From contig CAVQFM010000014.1 of assembly GCA_963711705.1 (NCBI GenBank), positions 315,296 to 355,295 on the forward strand: a DNA stretch of 40,000 nt, given 5' to 3'. Below the pieces are notes generated by a model, which was not told the origin of the DNA, made no database searches, and saw only the letters and a program-made list of their open reading frames with translations. Shown here in pieces: positions 20,265 to 33,248 of the stretch. The stretch is from an uncultured Actinomycetes bacterium (GTDB lineage: Bacteria > Actinomycetota > Actinomycetes > Streptosporangiales > Streptosporangiaceae). The translations under genes were made by a program, and so were the position numbers. Every line of letters starts with the position of its first letter. Position 1 is the stretch's first letter.

Positions 20265-21383
20265 TCAAGCCGGGCCGCTGGTCTTTTCAGGGTGGTTGTC
20301 CACTCCGGGCGGCACAGGCTGACGGCACCCATGGGCGGTCAATGCGTTCGCTATCTCTTGTGTGGTCTGTTCCCAGCCGCGCAGGGTTGACCGCCGCTGT
20401 CGTGCGGCGGCCCGTAGCCGGTGTCGGTGGCGCTCGTCACCCAGCCAGTCTCCGAGCGCGGCGGCGAGGGCAGCCGGATCGCCGGGAGGGACCAGTTGGC
20501 CGGGCCGGGTGCCGTCGGCGGTGGAGCCGAGCGCTTCGGGCAGCCCCCCGACGGCGGCGGCTATGACAGGCAGGCCGTGGGCGAGCGCTTCGGTGACGGC
20601 CATGCCGTAGGTCTCCGAGCGGGACGGCACGACGAGCAGGTCGGCGGTGGTATACGCGTGGCTGAGTGCCGCGCCGGTCAGGACGCCGCTGAGCCGGATG
20701 CGGTGGCCGTAGCCGAGGCGTTTGATACGGGTCTGCAGCTGTTCGACGAAGTCCGGGTCGCGGTCGAGCGGTCCGGCCAGCACGCAATGCCAGTCCCGCT
20801 CAGCGAGGCCGGCCAGCGCCTCGACGAGGAGGTCCTGCCCCTTGTGGCGGCCGAGGACCCCGACGCACATCAGGTGGCCGCGGACGGGCCGGGCCGGGGC
20901 ATCGACCCGATCGACGCCGGGCCGGGCGACGTGCACCCGGTGGGCCGGGATCGCGTATCGGGTCAGTACCTGCTGGCGGGTCCATTCGCTGGTAGCGACC
21001 ACGCCGGTGGCCGCGCGGAGCACGACCCGTTCGGAGCGCTGCGCGCTGGCATCATGGTGTGCGTCGAGGGCGGTGGCCAGTGGCATGTGCAGCAGGACTG
21101 TCATTCGTATCCGGCCGGTGTGTGGCAGCAGCTGCGCGGCGGCCGGCGAGGCGATGAGCCCGTCGATCAGGACGGTCTCACCGTCGGGGATCTCGGAAAC
21201 GATGCGGGCCAGGTCGGCGCGGGCGCCCGCGCCGGGTACCGGCCACGCCGCGGCGACGCTCGTGACCAGCACGTCCCATCCGGCCTCGGCCAGCCCGGCG
21301 CAGGCGCGCCGGTCATAGATGTTGCCGCCGGTAGGCTGGCCGGGATCGTCGAACCCCTCGGGGACTACTACGTGGACCCGCAC
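20265..21383 (-). CDS. GT4-family (GT-B, glycosyltransferase group 1) glycosyltransferase
   Basis: 'MRVHVVVPEGFDDPGQPTGGNIYDR' is a GT4 N-terminus. 'LLVVPSRSETYGMAVTEALAHGLPVIAAAVGGLPEAL' carries the E-x7-E region. Confidence 0.85.
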   Translation of the reverse strand: MRVHVVVPEGFDDPGQPTGGNIYDRRACAGLAEAGWDVLVTSVAAAWPVPGAGARADLARIVSEIPDGETVLIDGLIASPAAAQLLPHTGRIRMTVLLHMPLATALDAHHDASAQRSERVVLRAATGVVATSEWTRQQVLTRYAIPAHRVHVARPGVDRVDAPARPVRGHLMCVGVLGRHKGQDLLVEALAGLAERDWHCVLAGPLDRDPDFVEQLQTRIKRLGYGHRIRLSGVLTGAALSHAYTTADLLVVPSRSETYGMAVTEALAHGLPVIAAAVGGLPEALGSTADGTRPGQLVPPGDPAALAAALGDWLGDERHRHRLRAAARQRRSTLRGWEQTTQEIANALTAHGCRQPVPPGVDNHPEKTSGPA

Positions 21384-21622
21384 GATGTTCCGGCCCTTTC
21401 AGAGCGCCTGCCGTACCCGAGCCAGCCTCCCCCCTACGGCCGGGCTGAACCACACCCGCCGCCGATCCGTCATACCTGACGCAGGGTGGTACGTAGCAGC
21501 GGTGGACACGGTTCGACCCGAGACGACCGCCGCCGCTCGACCCGGGGGCGCGGCACGGCAGGTAGCCCTGCCGGGCCGGGTGGCAGCCGCTCCGCCGTGC
21601 CGGACACCGTGCGGGATCTGAC

Positions 21623-22384
21623 GTGAGACAGGATCAGCGAGCACCATCCTTGACGGCGCTAGAGCGGGCCCAAGCGAGCGCCTACCCCGCGGGCGAGTAT
21701 GTAGGCCAGGAGAGCTTCATGCGGGCGGGCGAGGTCCGGACGCTGGCTCACCAGGCCCGGGTCGGCCCCGGCGTCTCAGTGCTCGACCTGTGCTGCGGGG
21801 TGGCCGGCCCCGGCCGGATGATCACGGCCGAGTCGGGATGCCACTACCTGGGTGTCGATTACTCCGCTAGCGCACTGGCTACCGCCCAGGAGCGGGCCGG
21901 GAATCTCCCCTGCCGCTTCGAGCAAGCTCATCTCCCGCCGCTGCCCGAGGGCCGCTTCGAGGTGGTGCTCCTGCTGGAGACGATGCTGGCCTTCCCTGAC
22001 AAGGAGACCCTGGTGGGTGAGGTGGCGCGCGGGCTGGAGCCGGGCGGGCGTTTCGCTTTCACGGTCGAGGAAGGCCGGCCGCTCACCCAGCAGGAGCGGG
22101 CGCGGATGCCCGGCGCCGATACAGTCTGGCTCATCGAGTTGGCGGAGTTGACGGGCGTGCTGCGCGAGGCGGGGCTGACCGTGATCTGGCGGCAGGAGTA
22201 CAGCTCCTGTCATCACGCGATAGCGACGGCGCTGCTTCGCTGTTATCGAGCTGCTTCACCTCAGATCGCCGACCAGATCGGGACGCAGGACACCGCCGAG
22301 CTGATCACAGCCCATCAGCTGTGGAGTGACTGGCTCGGCAGCGGGCGGGTGCGCAAGTTCGCGATGGTGGCCGAGAAGCGATGA
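21623..22384 (+). CDS. Class I SAM-dependent methyltransferase (MT-1)
   Basis: Motif I is 'VLDLCCGVAGPG' and the post-I region is 'YLGVDYS'. An alternative ATG at 21719 has an AGGAGA RBS. The stop overlaps the MT-2 start (ATGA, 22381-22384). Confidence 0.8.
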   Translation: MRQDQRAPSLTALERAQASAYPAGEYVGQESFMRAGEVRTLAHQARVGPGVSVLDLCCGVAGPGRMITAESGCHYLGVDYSASALATAQERAGNLPCRFEQAHLPPLPEGRFEVVLLLETMLAFPDKETLVGEVARGLEPGGRFAFTVEEGRPLTQQERARMPGADTVWLIELAELTGVLREAGLTVIWRQEYSSCHHAIATALLRCYRAASPQIADQIGTQDTAELITAHQLWSDWLGSGRVRKFAMVAEKR

Positions 22385-31226: not shown

Positions 31227-31694
31227 CTAGGATTCCGCGCCTCCCCGCGTACCGGACTCAACCGCAGCCTTGATCGCCACCATCTCGCGATCGCTTACCC
31301 GCTGAATTCTGCCTTGGAGAGTGCGGCCGGGGACCGCGCGCATGACGCCCGCGAGGTCGACCTCAATCCACATCTTGGCGTCGGTCTGCCTATCGTCTAC
31401 CGGCTCGAGTTCCATTCCCCAGCGCGCGGGGGAGGTACCCATTGGCCCGGCGAACGCCACATAGCGGGGCGCCTCGACAGCGGTCACCTTCTGGCTCCGG
31501 CTGTGAGCCAGCCCGAGTGGCCCCTTCGCCCGCTGCTCCACCCACGAGCCGGGCTGAAGCGGAGCTCCTCCGCGAACCCGGCATTCGAGAACCGTTGGCG
31601 CCCACTCCGGCCAGCGTCCGACGTCACAGATGTACGCCCATACCTCACCGACGCTGCTGGCGATCTGTATGCGGCTCTCGGTTCTGAATGTCAT
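31227..31694 (-). CDS. SRPBCC (polyketide cyclase/dehydrase-like, START-fold) ligand-binding protein
   Basis: 'MTFRTESRIQIASSVGEVWAYICDVGRWPEWAPTV' is a typical SRPBCC N-terminus (..I.A....VW..L.D...WP.W.P). It is about 155 aa long. The upstream part of ORF 31227..31838 is probably not translated. Confidence 0.75.
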   Translation of the reverse strand: MTFRTESRIQIASSVGEVWAYICDVGRWPEWAPTVLECRVRGGAPLQPGSWVEQRAKGPLGLAHSRSQKVTAVEAPRYVAFAGPMGTSPARWGMELEPVDDRQTDAKMWIEVDLAGVMRAVPGRTLQGRIQRVSDREMVAIKAAVESGTRGGAES

Positions 31695-31853
31695 CGGGCG
31701 CGACGCTACATCCTGACTGAGACGCCTGCAAGTTCGCTCCGAGGGCGGAGGATCAGGCAAATCTCGCCGCCCAAGCCCTGCGGGTAGGGAATCAACGTAA
31801 GCCACACCCGCGAGGCCAGGTTTGGTGTCCCCGGCCACTATCTGACCGTAGAT

Positions 31854-33248
31854 CTAATAGGTTCCCTGGACGCCGTGATCCAGGCGGTTTAGCGCCCGCT
31901 GCAGCCAGCGGACGTCACCATCGCGCAGTTCTGCAACGTCGTCTGGCATGAGCGTAGGGATGAGCTGCCAGTAGCTCCAGGCCTGGTAGAGCGCACCGGC
32001 GACCAGGGCAAGCCGGCCGGCTGCAGTCAGGTCGTCCGATGACATGTATCTGGACCAGAGCCCAAGGTAGCGCTGGAGCAGGCGGCGGCGCAGGGCGAGA
32101 TCGTCGGTGCGCATGATGTATGTGACGAGGTCAAGGAACGGATGCGCCACGGCAGCGTCAGTCCAGTCGAAGATCCGCGTTCCATCCTGGCCTGCCACGA
32201 CATTCCACGGATGAAAGTCGCCGTGGGTGAGCGTGGGGCCCGGTCCGATCCGGTCGAGACTGGCACACGCAGCCACCATCGCTGGCACGGACGCCAGCCA
32301 GGCCTCGCGCTCTTCCTGGGCGAAGCGGCTCATCAGGTCTGCATCCTGGGCAGTGCCGTTCACCCAGTCGGCCAGCTGGCGTAGTGGCCGCAACTCGGCA
32401 CCTGCGGCGAGCAGGTCACCGGTGCGGCCGAGCCACTTCTGCTGGAGGCCCGCCAGGGCGTCAAGCCCGAGCTGCCACATCGATTCCGGCTGGTCACCGA
32501 GTAGCGGTGCATCAAGGTCACGCATCAGCAGCCAGCCACGGTCTGGCTCGACCGCCAGGACGTCAGGAAGGTATCCCGGTGAGCGGTCGGCCAGGGCCTG
32601 GGTCATCCGGGCCTCATGCCTGAACCGGTCACCACTGCATTTCAGGAAGGCACGACCGGTACGGGACACGGCGGACAGCACCACCGAGATGCCCCACAAG
32701 TGATGAATTCGCGGGACCTCTGGGTCCGGGTATCCCGCCGCGATCATCTGTCCTTGCATCCACCGGGACGCCTCAGCCAGCCAGCCCGGGCGAGACCATT
32801 GCGGCCGCAGATCCGACCAGCCTGCGATGCGCTCGCGAGTCCAGGACCGCATCGAGGCACGAGCCCAGGCTGGATCCACGGTCTCAGCATCAGACTCGTT
32901 GAGCAGCGCCCAGCAGAACCCGCGGGGCTCCGTGTTCAGCGGGCCGATCTCCACGATCAGGGCGGTAGCGTCGAACCGAGAGTTCCACGCTGCGGCATTG
33001 GCACGGAGCAGCGTGACCGGCTCGCCGATCAGCCGGCTCACACCCCCGACCACCTCGTCCATGTCCGGCTCAACGCTCACAGCAACGGTAGGCAGAGCGC
33101 AGACCGCCGCACGGCCGCTGGCAGAAGGCAGCTGGCACAACGTCGCCCGATCACCCTGGCGCGGCGCCAGGACCACCACCAGGCAACCCGCGTCCGCTGC
33201 CTGTTCAGCCATCCGCACATCCTGCATGGACCCGCCGTTCCGCGCCAC
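31854..33248 (-). CDS. Aminoglycoside-phosphotransferase-fold (APH / small-molecule kinase) protein with ~150-aa N-terminal extension
   Basis: 'LTHGDFHPWNVV' is the HxDxxxxN catalytic loop. 'RIFDWTDAAVAHPFLDL' is the Mg-binding D motif. Confidence 0.8.
   Translation of the reverse strand: MARNGGSMQDVRMAEQAADAGCLVVVLAPRQGDRATLCQLPSASGRAAVCALPTVAVSVEPDMDEVVGGVSRLIGEPVTLLRANAAAWNSRFDATALIVEIGPLNTEPRGFCWALLNESDAETVDPAWARASMRSWTRERIAGWSDLRPQWSRPGWLAEASRWMQGQMIAAGYPDPEVPRIHHLWGISVVLSAVSRTGRAFLKCSGDRFRHEARMTQALADRSPGYLPDVLAVEPDRGWLLMRDLDAPLLGDQPESMWQLGLDALAGLQQKWLGRTGDLLAAGAELRPLRQLADWVNGTAQDADLMSRFAQEEREAWLASVPAMVAACASLDRIGPGPTLTHGDFHPWNVVAGQDGTRIFDWTDAAVAHPFLDLVTYIMRTDDLALRRRLLQRYLGLWSRYMSSDDLTAAGRLALVAGALYQAWSYWQLIPTLMPDDVAELRDGDVRWLQRALNRLDHGVQGTY

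Follow-up and report, generated by a model that had tools for sequence, protein, structure and literature searches.

The window analyzed here, a 40,000-nucleotide stretch of contig CAVQFM010000014.1 from an uncultured Streptosporangiaceae bacterium, carries a gene cluster at positions 20265–33248. We interpret this cluster as the Streptosporangiales-type version of a widespread, uncharacterized pathway that joins a GTP-derived branch to polar-lipid head-group machinery. Its genes very probably form one functional unit. The source of the window (~70% G+C) is a 355-kb metagenome-assembled contig. Real genes were picked by the G+C content of third codon positions (GC3), and domains were called by Pfam and NCBIfam profile searches of the window proteins. 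The open reading frames (ORFs) of the region are the following:

20265–21383, minus strand: glycosyltransferase of family 4 (GT4; PF00534)
21623–22384, plus strand: MT1, class I S-adenosylmethionine (SAM) methyltransferase (PF08241/PF13649)
22381–23296, plus strand: MT2, methyltransferase, frameshifted (weak Pfam methyltransferase matches)
23463–24200, minus strand: GTP cyclohydrolase II (GCH II; PF00925, NCBIfam RibA)
24207–25232, minus strand: MprF-type flippase-like membrane protein (PF03706)
25461–27785, plus strand: fusion protein, 774 aa (CDP-alcohol phosphatidyltransferase plus predicted LtaS/EptA-type domain)
27872–28300, plus strand: short sigma-70 region-4 ORF (PF04545)
28341–29048, minus strand: histidine phosphatase, CobC/Rv2228c-like (PF00300)
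29082–29492, minus strand: PTPS/QueD-like T-fold protein (PF01242)
29449–30420, minus strand: BchC-like medium-chain dehydrogenase/reductase (MDR; BchC model)
30452–31261, minus strand: MT3, UbiE/PmtA-like class I methyltransferase (PF13649)
31227–31838, minus strand: SRPBCC/START-like ligand-binding protein (PF10604)
31854–33248, minus strand: APH-fold kinase (PF01636)

A scan of one genome per species revealed 80 loci encoding relatives of the fusion protein. They belong mostly to uncultured Streptosporangiaceae-like soil actinobacteria; the other fusion-bearing groups are Actinocrinis, Frankiaceae, Micromonosporaceae, Nakamurella, Gaiellales and Solirubrobacterales. Synteny was counted at the 49 loci whose flanks reach 8 kb or more on each side, 37 of them close and 12 distant (fusion ~50% identical). 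The close relatives are almost all metagenome assemblies with visible indel errors. Neighboring genes were found as follows:

Flippase-like protein: 36 of 37 close loci, 12 of 12 distant loci
GT4: 36 of 37 close, 8 of 12 distant
MT1: 34 of 37 close, 8 of 12 distant
MT2: 35 of 37 close, 0 of 12 distant
PTPS-like protein: 35 of 37 close, 8 of 12 distant
Dehydrogenase: 35 of 37 close, 7 of 12 distant
Histidine phosphatase: 33 of 37 close, 0 of 12 distant
MT3: 33 of 37 close, 5 of 12 distant
SRPBCC protein: 33 of 37 close, 5 of 12 distant
GCH II: 25 of 37 close, 3 of 12 distant
RibD C-terminal-type reductase: 1 of 37 close, 8 of 12 distant
Acyltransferase-3: 11 of 37 close, 6 of 12 distant
APH-fold kinase: 0 of 37 close, 0 of 12 distant

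The coupling of a GTP module to a lipid module, which a preliminary description of this DNA had proposed, is thus reflected in co-conservation: each core gene is present at 33–36 of the 37 close loci, and the association extends across phyla. Within the clade of soil actinobacteria the synteny is stable and amino-acid identity is 80–95%. At locus L073 the fusion, acyltransferase, flippase-like, reductase and cyclohydrolase genes form one tight operon. The histidine phosphatase, MT3 and SRPBCC genes are lineage-specific additions and not part of the universal core.

Metagenome-assembled genomes of Solirubrobacterales (L063–L070, e.g., L064 at 8529–15476) carry a second fusion copy in a five-gene operon that encodes an SRPBCC protein, MT3, the fusion, a flippase-like protein and a 700-aa polytopic membrane protein without Pfam match; the order SRPBCC-MT3-fusion-flippase is found in both L064 and L070. 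The MT3 and SRPBCC proteins of these operons are 87–89 and 69–79% identical to those of the window, and the fusion only ~48%. Such identity of MT3 and SRPBCC, as read from the sequences, points to recent transfer or unusual constraint.

Loci in other phyla were traced via a free-standing sulfatase-like protein homologous to the C-terminal part of the fusion, and then with the dehydrogenase as a marker against annotated plasmids. With the latter, 28 plasmids were seen to carry the cluster (gene tables in PLSDB are incomplete, and genes absent from the plasmid lists may be merely unlisted). The cluster is often borne by a plasmid or megaplasmid and its distribution is patchy. With ADH for the dehydrogenase, CDP-OH for CDP-alcohol and MT for methyltransferase, the gene sets were:

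Agrobacterium tumefaciens Yub001 pAt: sulfatase, flippase-like, CDP-alcohol transferase, RibA, ADH, PTPS-like, GT4, methyltransferase, RibD, cytochrome b
Neorhizobium galegae: same core set, unfused
Microbacterium plasmid: CDP-OH transferase, ADH, PTPS-like, GT4, MT, flippase-like; RibD
Thiodictyon: ADH, PTPS-like, GT4, MT, cytochrome b, RibD, CDP-OH transferase
Methylosinus trichosporium OB3b: ADH, PTPS-like, GT4, hypothetical protein; RibD
Palleronia: ribA-ADH-PTPS-MT-RibD operon; GT4 coupled to an IMPase-family phosphatase
Cellvibrio: GCH II-RibD_C-ADH-PTPS operon beside GT4, MT2-type methyltransferase and a sulfatase-like gene
Streptomyces fungicidicus p1: CDP-OH transferase; ADH, PTPS-like, GT4, MT; creatininase; ribA
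Haloarcula pelagica: operon of CDP-alcohol transferase, GTP cyclohydrolase IIa, ADH, PTPS-like and methyltransferase
Haloarcula marismortui: creatininase, CDP-OH transferase, ADH, GT4

In Agrobacterium, Neorhizobium, Streptomyces, Microbacterium and Haloarcula the CDP-alcohol transferase domain is encoded by a gene of its own. Accessory tailoring genes vary between versions (FkbM methyltransferase, acyltransferase-3, Gfo/Idh/MocA oxidoreductase). In two unrelated versions, those of A. tumefaciens pAt (L094, 12984–13517) and Thiodictyon (L096, 12497–13054), the RibD-family gene has a small cytochrome b gene as its neighbor, which hints at a redox-active product. On plasmid pOB3b1 of M. trichosporium OB3b (L092, 8079–9881) the ADH-PTPS-GT4 core sits directly beside mdoH, which could be coincidence; the mdoH product is the glucosyltransferase of osmoregulated periplasmic glucan synthesis, and glucans of this class are known as acceptors of LtaS-like phosphoglycerol transferases.

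These versions reach the pyrimidine by (i) a Tyr-type GCH II; (ii) a Met-type GCH II together with a creatininase-family gene, in S. fungicidicus; or (iii) the archaeal GTP cyclohydrolase IIa, accompanied in the H. marismortui locus by a creatininase-family gene. Archaeal creatininase-family proteins are formamidases that complete the reaction which a Met-type cyclohydrolase leaves at the formylamino-pyrimidine. For bacteria, PMC9478397 describes by its title a formamidase (BrbF) needed for riboflavin biosynthesis; its protein Sm-BrbF had first been annotated as a creatininase. Three non-orthologous routes to one compound thus accompany the same core, so that the first pyrimidine of the riboflavin pathway emerges as the likely precursor of the pathway. 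This is the strongest evidence for such a precursor.

The version closest to previously studied proteins is the SCO6650 locus type, represented by S. fungicidicus p1, which has the same core genes as the window. Its PTPS-like protein matches PDB entry 3d7j, "uncharacterized protein SCO6650" (E = 3e-79), and its RibA has Met at the position of E. coli Tyr105. We take this Met to be the signature of SCO6655, the S. coelicolor GTP cyclohydrolase II paralogue encoded near SCO6650. The SCO6655-type cyclohydrolase reportedly stops at a formylated pyrimidine intermediate, in the work of Spoonamore and Bandarian in Biochemistry in 2006 and 2008. The SCO6650 locus type differs from the window in that its transferase is unfused, it has a Met-type cyclohydrolase plus a creatininase-family formamidase where the window has a Tyr-type GCH II, and the PTPS-like proteins of the two types are about 26% identical. 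The link to clusters of Streptomyces RibA paralogues, mentioned in the preliminary description, is real, as judged by the S. fungicidicus core set and the SCO6650 match. To our knowledge, the only pieces studied are SCO6650 (structure, no assigned function) and SCO6655 (enzymology). Full-text literature searches returned no description of the cluster, in agreement with the initial impression that no characterized pathway has this gene set.

Could ordinary riboflavin or folate genes lie beside lipid genes by accident? The window cyclohydrolase keeps all canonical RibA residues, and the gene is absent from 12 of the 37 close loci, as accidental adjacency would allow. However, the association recurs in Actinomycetota, Alpha- and Gammaproteobacteria and Halobacteria, variously ordered and with or without the fusion, and the genes are co-conserved in related genomes. 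Cluster versions share GCH II or IIa, creatininase-family genes and a TIGR01508-type reductase with the early riboflavin pathway of archaea and fungi (GCH IIa/ArfA, ArfB/BrbF, ArfC), but they are devoid of deaminase, lumazine synthase and riboflavin synthase genes, and no folate genes lie alongside. The intermediate would go instead to the dehydrogenase, PTPS-like protein, GT4 and methyltransferases. We exclude accidental adjacency because the synteny spans domains of life, and we consider such an origin hardly credible.

The cyclohydrolase of the window was recovered with PF00925 (E = 5e-54, 182.9 bits vs. a cut-off of 23.3) and with the RibA subfamily model NF001591 (249 bits vs. 148). In an alignment, the proteins of the window, L073 and L089 all keep the zinc triad C88, C99 and C101, as well as Y138 (E. 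coli Y105) and the catalytic R161 (E. coli R128). Residue positions were assigned with typed-in versions of E. coli RibA and QueD. By these residues the window enzyme is assigned as a canonical Tyr-type GTP cyclohydrolase II. An SCO6655-type (Met) enzyme was considered for the window and ruled out, the Tyr being kept. Relatives encode a reductase beside the cyclohydrolase whose best curated match is TIGR01508 (E = 6e-42), the model of the archaeal 2,5-diamino-6-ribosylamino-pyrimidinone-5'-phosphate reductase. The idea of a GTP-derived pyrimidine or pterin is strengthened because an archaeal-type reductase adjoins the cyclohydrolase in relatives. A RibD_C gene 3' of the SRPBCC gene, of the type seen at L084, was rejected as a conserved member, being present at only 2–3 loci.

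The PTPS-like protein matches PF01242 (E = 3e-20, 72.6 bits vs. 22.4) and E. coli QueD structures (E = 1.5e-6). It keeps the zinc-binding His triad (H26, H39 and H41) and the ring-anchoring C-terminal Glu (E124), and the catalytic Cys is replaced by Glu. In PTPS and QueD the ring-anchoring Glu holds a 2-amino-4-oxo-pyrimidine ring. The equivalog cut-offs are missed (QueD, 44 bits vs. 89; 6PTHBS, 35 vs. 125), and the profile scores and residues thus mark the protein as PTPS-like rather than as QueD or PTPS. Its likely start is GTG at 29459, giving the 125-aa product called in relatives.

The dehydrogenase gene is adjacent to, or overlaps, the PTPS-like gene. Its product had been labeled a zinc-dependent alcohol dehydrogenase, but zinc dependence is unsupported: the PF00107 match is below cut-off (29.1 bits vs. 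31.8), and a cross-phylum alignment shows the motif SGIS-x-GTE and no Cys conserved where a zinc ligand would be expected. The best model is BchC (E = 1e-21, 77 bits vs. a cut-off of 291). From these matches, an MDR fold is likely.

This module would also serve for a soluble pterin glycoside of the cyanopterin or biopterin-glucoside kind, made independently of GTP cyclohydrolase I. In that route, GCH II, C1' reduction, C2' oxidation and ring closure would be followed by trimming or rearrangement of the side chain by the PTPS-like protein and decoration by GT4 and the methyltransferases, and the membrane proteins would only export or tether the pterin. The PTPS/QueD-family T-fold with its ring-anchoring Glu is consistent with such a product, as are the GCH II-RibD_C-ADH-PTPS operons of Cellvibrio and Palleronia and the cytochrome b gene beside RibD in Agrobacterium and Thiodictyon. 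A UDP-glucose:tetrahydrobiopterin glucosyltransferase is among the solved relatives of GT4 (E = 2e-6), but it is not the closest of them. The reductase, in turn, resembles pyrimidine and not pterin reductases, and a CDP-alcohol phosphatidyltransferase is found in nearly every lineage, in H. pelagica in the same operon as the cyclohydrolase, which a purely soluble product leaves unexplained. We consider a soluble pterin glycoside unlikely.

The preferred reading, a polar-lipid head group, leans on the fusion and the flippase-like protein. The N-terminal 225 residues of the fusion (25461–26135) form a CDP-alcohol phosphatidyltransferase with about 6 transmembrane (TM) helices (PF01066, E = 2e-10, 41.9 bits vs. 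a cut-off of 22). The motif D-x2-DG-x2-AR-x8-G-x3-D-x3-D is intact at residues 101–126 (D101...D126), where it reads DAVDGQVARRTGTATALGARIDGEVD. No specific NCBIfam subfamily was reached (archaetidylinositol-phosphate synthase, 23 bits vs. 180; PgsA, 20 vs. 304), and PssA structures matched at E = 0.005 only in a PDB search. By these scores the alcohol substrate is not assignable from subfamily models.

The C-terminal 549 residues (26136–27785) comprise 5 TM helices, seen as five hydrophobic segments at residues 233–404, and an extracytoplasmic alkaline-phosphatase-fold domain. This half of the window protein gave no Pfam match, including PF00884 (Sulfatase), and phmmer against the PDB matched the N-domain only. 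When the family was aligned, however, 42 of 58 members matched PF00884, and the family profile matched the Listeria lipoteichoic acid (LTA) primase 4uop weakly (E = 0.008). An AlphaFold2 model built on the 58-member alignment had a mean predicted local distance difference test score (pLDDT) of 94.3. Its best Foldseek matches were LtaP, LtaS, full-length MCR-1, EptA, GacH and EptC (probability 1.00; E = 1e-10 to 1e-6 for the first five), at 11–16% sequence identity. Residues E465, S513, D597, S625-H626 and D701-H702 are invariant in the 58 sequences, and S513 sits at the N-terminus of model helix 288–297. In the alignment these residues have the pattern of a metal site and a hydroxyl nucleophile. 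According to the model, the C-terminal half is an LtaS/EptA-type alkaline-phosphatase-fold domain. Membership of the ectodomain in the alkaline-phosphatase superfamily, on which the first interpretation of the cluster depended, held in the model, in the Foldseek matches and in the PF00884 matches of relatives.

In public data, more than 3,500 homologues of the fusion were scored, with 982 cluster representatives at E ≤ 1e-30, and source databases label relatives as phosphatidylglycerophosphate synthase or MdoB. A library-wide search found the C-terminal part also free-standing, as a protein of ~540 aa, in many bacteria. An exact sequence look-up of the window fusion found no record. Relatives have a fusion of ~808 aa that starts ~80 nt 5' of the first in-frame start codon of the window (25233–25460). 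The window fusion starts with TTG at 25461, and the database calls a 726-aa product; its N-terminus may be shortened or mis-called.

The flippase-like protein (341 aa) matches PF03706 over profile positions 2–297 of 302 (E = 6e-28, 98.7 bits vs. 33.4), and its gene adjoins the fusion gene at all but one of the 37 close loci and at all 12 distant ones. An aminoacyl-phosphatidylglycerol synthase domain is absent: PF03706 is the only match, and the bifunctional MprF model scores 25 bits vs. 600. As judged from these domain matches, the protein is flippase-like and not MprF.

An LTA-like, phosphoglycerol-transfer system would account for these membrane proteins in another way. The fusion would act like PgsA and make phosphatidylglycerol phosphate, which the histidine phosphatase would turn into phosphatidylglycerol; the flippase-like protein would expose this lipid, and the LtaS-like domain would polymerize glycerol phosphate or transfer it onto a GT4-made glycolipid, the GTP genes being a separate decoration or unrelated. 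LtaP and LtaS are the best structural matches, the family profile touches LTA primase, the PgsA and archaetidylinositol-phosphate synthase models give weak matches, and the database labels fit. The PgsA score is nevertheless far from its cut-off, the nucleophile is Ser and not Thr as in LtaS, and the histidine phosphatase is missing from most lineages. Such a system also leaves unexplained why GCH, RibD, ADH and PTPS genes travel with the CDP-alcohol transferase across phyla and archaea. We find it quite unlikely. Both the LTA-like system and the pterin glycoside are disfavored because the transferase and the cyclohydrolase share an operon in an archaeon.

GT4 is a core member in all versions of the cluster. 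It matches the GT-B fold models PF00534 (E = 8e-32, 110.6 bits) and PF13692 (97.9 bits) and reaches no equivalog model in NCBIfam (MshA, 93 bits vs. 462). Its best solved relatives are the sucrose-phosphate-synthase-like protein 6kih and MshA (3c48 and 7qsg). Unrelated phosphatases recur near GT4: a histidine phosphatase in the window, an IMPase-family protein in Palleronia and a histidine-phosphatase-family protein in Microbacterium. The histidine phosphatase of the window (PF00300, E = 4e-58, 196.9 bits vs. 21.7) has RHG at residues 41–43 and scores just below the cut-off of the alpha-ribazole phosphatase model (E = 2e-42, 144.5 bits vs. 162.9); its true start is probably near 28982.

Three class I SAM methyltransferases had been listed. 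Profiles support MT1 (PF08241/PF13649, E = 3e-12) and MT3 (PF13649, E = 4e-15), and MT2 is frameshifted in the window. MT1 may in fact start near 21719, given the 221-aa products called in relatives. MT2 is split by a 1-nt insertion near 22765–22775, as indicated by a GC3 phase switch, an intact 304-aa homologue in L001 and a DNA alignment. The frameshift could be an assembly error or mark a real pseudogene, because the contig is metagenome-assembled. Comparable damage is seen in L085, where MT1 and MT2 are split or truncated, and in L084, with a truncated MT2. A PDB search with MT2 gave no match, and its Pfam methyltransferase matches are weak; homologues of it serve as the methyltransferase in the Neorhizobium and Cellvibrio clusters, and its type is common to the proteobacterial versions checked. 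The five best solved relatives of MT3 include a phosphatidylethanolamine N-methyltransferase (E = 9e-7), and MT3 is paired with the SRPBCC protein (PF10604, E = 1e-14).

The APH-fold kinase (PF01636, E = 2e-16), which the preliminary description had placed in the soluble module, is adjacent but was rejected as a pathway member: none of the 49 related loci with long flanks has a counterpart, and the gene sits between the cluster and the apparent integration scar described below.

A promoter-like motif is common to the transcription units of the cluster. Motifs of the extracytoplasmic function (ECF) type were found at these positions:

21447–21470, plus strand: TGAACC-N16-CGTC, toward MT1-MT2
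21491–21514, minus strand: CGAACC-N16-CGTA, toward GT4
25313–25337, plus strand: TGAACC-N17-CGTT, toward the fusion gene
25373–25396, minus strand: TGAACC-N16-CGTC, toward the flippase-like and GTP cyclohydrolase II genes
29041–29064, minus strand: TGAACC-N16-CGTC, toward the histidine phosphatase gene
27974–27997, plus strand: sixth motif copy, just 5' of the coding part of the sigma-like ORF

The window holds 10 motif matches when compared with 3.6 expected (0 of 100 shuffles reach 10), and five of the 10 are correctly placed and oriented before transcription units of the cluster. Conservation of the motif at orthologous sites spans 24–41 related loci. The exact motif is kept at 32 of 41 sites before MT1 (relaxed motif, 40 of 41; GAACC and CGT are invariant columns of alignment A7), 27 of 29 before GT4, 31 of 31 before the fusion and 24 of 24 before the histidine phosphatase. 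The flippase-like/cyclohydrolase site (15 orthologous sites) is conserved but mostly as TGAATC, with the exact motif at 2 of 15. Intergenic DNA of the cluster is nearly as conserved as the genes. The AAC/CGT promoter class is used by envelope-stress ECF sigma factors, and expression is probably driven by such a factor via the five candidate promoters. A riboswitch in the GT4/MT1 spacer was rejected, the invariant columns being the −35 and −10 elements of the two divergent promoters; Rfam gave nothing at the gathering threshold and noise at E ≤ 1 in this intergenic region, and no covariation analysis was made.

The sigma-70 region-4 ORF at 27872–28300 (plus strand), overlooked by the preliminary description, is the true thirteenth ORF. 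The ORF counted in its place, 27470–28108 (minus strand), was rejected as a gene and shadows the fusion's 3' end on the opposite strand: its apparent homologues elsewhere are all antisense to that 3' end, and it has no family match. The sigma-like ORF matches PF04545 (E = 3e-8, region 4 only), its coding signal begins only near 27992 as judged by GC3, and its DNA is 80–92% conserved in about 20 loci. In relatives an ATGA overlap joins it to a zf-HC2 anti-sigma gene downstream (L053, 12385–13550, PF13490). In the window this gene is deleted except for its first 13 codons, from 28297 (28297–28340).

The close packing of the genes reported earlier was reproduced at every junction: the ATGA stop/start overlap of MT1 and MT2 at 22381–22384, the 6-nt gap at 24200/24207 (flippase-like gene upstream of GTP cyclohydrolase II on one strand) and the 31-nt gap at 30420/30452. 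The overlap of the PTPS-like and dehydrogenase genes at 29449–29492 stands at 44 nt for the longest ORF, but is more likely 11 nt with the GTG start at 29459. Profile searches likewise recovered the named domain families for GT4, GTP cyclohydrolase II, and the PTPS-like, histidine phosphatase, SRPBCC, APH and flippase-like proteins, as well as the N-terminal part of the fusion.

At the left border, a 133-aa ORF (19647–20048, plus strand) has only the dimerization domain of a pyridine-nucleotide-disulphide oxidoreductase and appears to be a truncated gene fragment. Beyond the APH gene there is a tRNA/tmRNA 3'-end-like fragment (partial Rfam tmRNA match, E = 1.4e-5, 33565–33661, minus strand), where ARAGORN found no intact tRNA or tmRNA gene. 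The fragment is flanked by imperfect direct repeats of ~100 nt, followed by two tyrosine-recombinase genes (33364–33661, 34506–35597, 36529–37416). This arrangement looks like an integration scar bordering the cluster. The G+C content falls from 0.72 to 0.67 over 27.8–33.2 kb.

Mobility of this kind would suit a secondary-metabolite cluster, whose product would be a secreted bioactive phospho-glyco-pyrimidine or -pteridine, with the lipid-linked steps serving as an export carrier cycle. The cluster is often plasmid-borne and patchy, it adjoins the apparent scar in the window, and its tailoring genes vary. The amino-acid identity and stable synteny within the soil-actinobacterial clade speak against it, as do promoters of a class typical of envelope functions and the absence, by Pfam, of transporter, resistance, nonribosomal peptide synthetase or polyketide synthase genes from the cluster. 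We regard a secondary metabolite as very unlikely.

For the polar-lipid pathway, we propose the following chain from gene content. GTP cyclohydrolase II would convert GTP to 2,5-diamino-6-ribosylamino-4(3H)-pyrimidinone 5'-phosphate. The RibD-type reductase would act next; most other lineages encode it in the cluster, and here its gene presumably lies elsewhere in the genome. The BchC-like dehydrogenase and the always-paired PTPS-like protein might remodel the product to a pterin- or ribitylaminopyrimidine-type polyol phosphate; an attractive chemical possibility is that C1' reduction followed by C2' oxidation could mimic an Amadori step and close a dihydropterin ring. GT4 would glycosylate this intermediate while it still bears its phosphate, which would then be stripped by a phosphatase, in the window the CobC-like histidine phosphatase. 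We place glycosylation before dephosphorylation because the nearest solved relatives of GT4 use phosphorylated acceptors and phosphatases recur nearby. The methyltransferases would decorate the product. The CDP-alcohol phosphatidyltransferase domain would couple the alcohol to CDP-diacylglycerol at the cytoplasmic face (CDP-archaeol in Haloarcula), and the MprF-type flippase-like protein would move the lipid outward. The LtaS/EptA-type ectodomain (Ser513 as nucleophile; Glu465, Asp701 and His702 as metal site) would transfer the phospho-head group to an envelope acceptor, releasing diacylglycerol. We advance this chain, from a GTP-derived glycosylated methylated polyol through a flipped phospholipid to an envelope acceptor, tentatively, and judge it to fall just short of evenly balanced.

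Every cluster protein can be placed in a known superfamily, and by analogy the membrane half follows the make-flip-transfer logic of PgsA/LtaS, phosphatidylethanolamine/EptA and MprF. Like the window fusion, LtaS/LtaP, GacH, OpgB and EptA/MCR-1 have five TM helices followed by an extracytoplasmic alkaline-phosphatase-fold domain, and LtaS/EptA-type enzymes share with it the metal-site pattern Glu...nucleophile...His...Asp-His. These enzymes pass a phospho-head group from a membrane phospholipid to an envelope acceptor. Their nucleophile is Thr in LtaS and EptA and Ser in the window fusion, which, unlike them, is joined to the enzyme that presumably makes its own donor lipid; we know of no such transferase-synthase fusion among the LtaS/EptA families. 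MprF shares the PF03706 domain and the logic of a dedicated flippase encoded with a modified-phospholipid synthase, but has a C-terminal aminoacyl-lipid synthase domain that the window protein lacks. The mycobacterial pgsA1-Rv2611c-pimA operon likewise encodes a CDP-alcohol transferase, a GT4 and an acyltransferase together. That operon makes phosphatidylinositol and its mannosides, and its transferase acts on a polyol phosphate. In contrast, the polyol of the cluster would not be inositol; the cluster is without an inositol-phosphate synthase and has GTP cyclohydrolase, RibD, dehydrogenase and PTPS-like genes instead. The GT4 relatives and recurring phosphatases also resemble the two-step glycosylation by MshA/MshA2 and by sucrose-phosphate synthase and phosphatase, with scores far below equivalog cut-offs. 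MshA and sucrose-phosphate synthase glycosylate phosphorylated acceptors.

Several observations weigh against this chain. On the GTP side, 12 of the 37 close loci are without the cyclohydrolase, so that this branch would be partly supplied elsewhere or be dispensable, and the in-cluster reductase is absent from the window. The roles given to the dehydrogenase and the PTPS-like protein are guesses, and SCO6650-type PTPS homologues are devoid of one zinc-binding His. MT2 is frameshifted, and therefore the pathway may be impaired in this organism. On the lipid side, CDP-alcohol transferases can also make soluble phosphodiesters, DIPP synthase being an example. The sulfatase-like family is not always tied to the pathway, since in Larsenimonas and Salinisphaera its homologues stand alone, outside any such cluster. 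Annotations of the Streptomyces and Haloarcula stretches examined list neither a flippase-like nor a sulfatase-like gene; because of this, and of the sulfatase-like protein being sometimes alone, the export and transfer steps appear to be optional.

More broadly, the pathway may produce a new polar lipid class common to bacteria and archaea, with a glycosylated, methylated, GTP-derived head group of the pterin- or ribitylaminopyrimidine-polyol type. In actinobacteria and rhizobia this lipid might also be the donor for envelope decoration with a potentially redox-active or fluorescent group under envelope-stress ECF control. We hold this proposal to be possible, with doubt outweighing belief. 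Culturable carriers of the cluster are A. tumefaciens Yub001, N. galegae, M. trichosporium OB3b, Microbacterium (SGAir0570), Streptomyces (S. coelicolor among them) and H. marismortui (pHMA411).

If the proposal is true, (i) the purine nucleotide pool would be a new source of head groups for membrane lipids; (ii) the first committed intermediate of riboflavin synthesis would gain a second metabolic fate; (iii) the Streptomyces RibA paralogue and the "uncharacterized" structure SCO6650 would be explained; (iv) the fusion would represent a new enzyme architecture, in which one polypeptide makes a special phospholipid and spends it outside the cell; and (v) the pathway would belong to a dominant yet uncultured group of soil actinobacteria. 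MR1 ligands derive from intermediates of the riboflavin pathway, and pterin- or lumazine-type surface groups could matter for redox chemistry, light sensing or host immune recognition.

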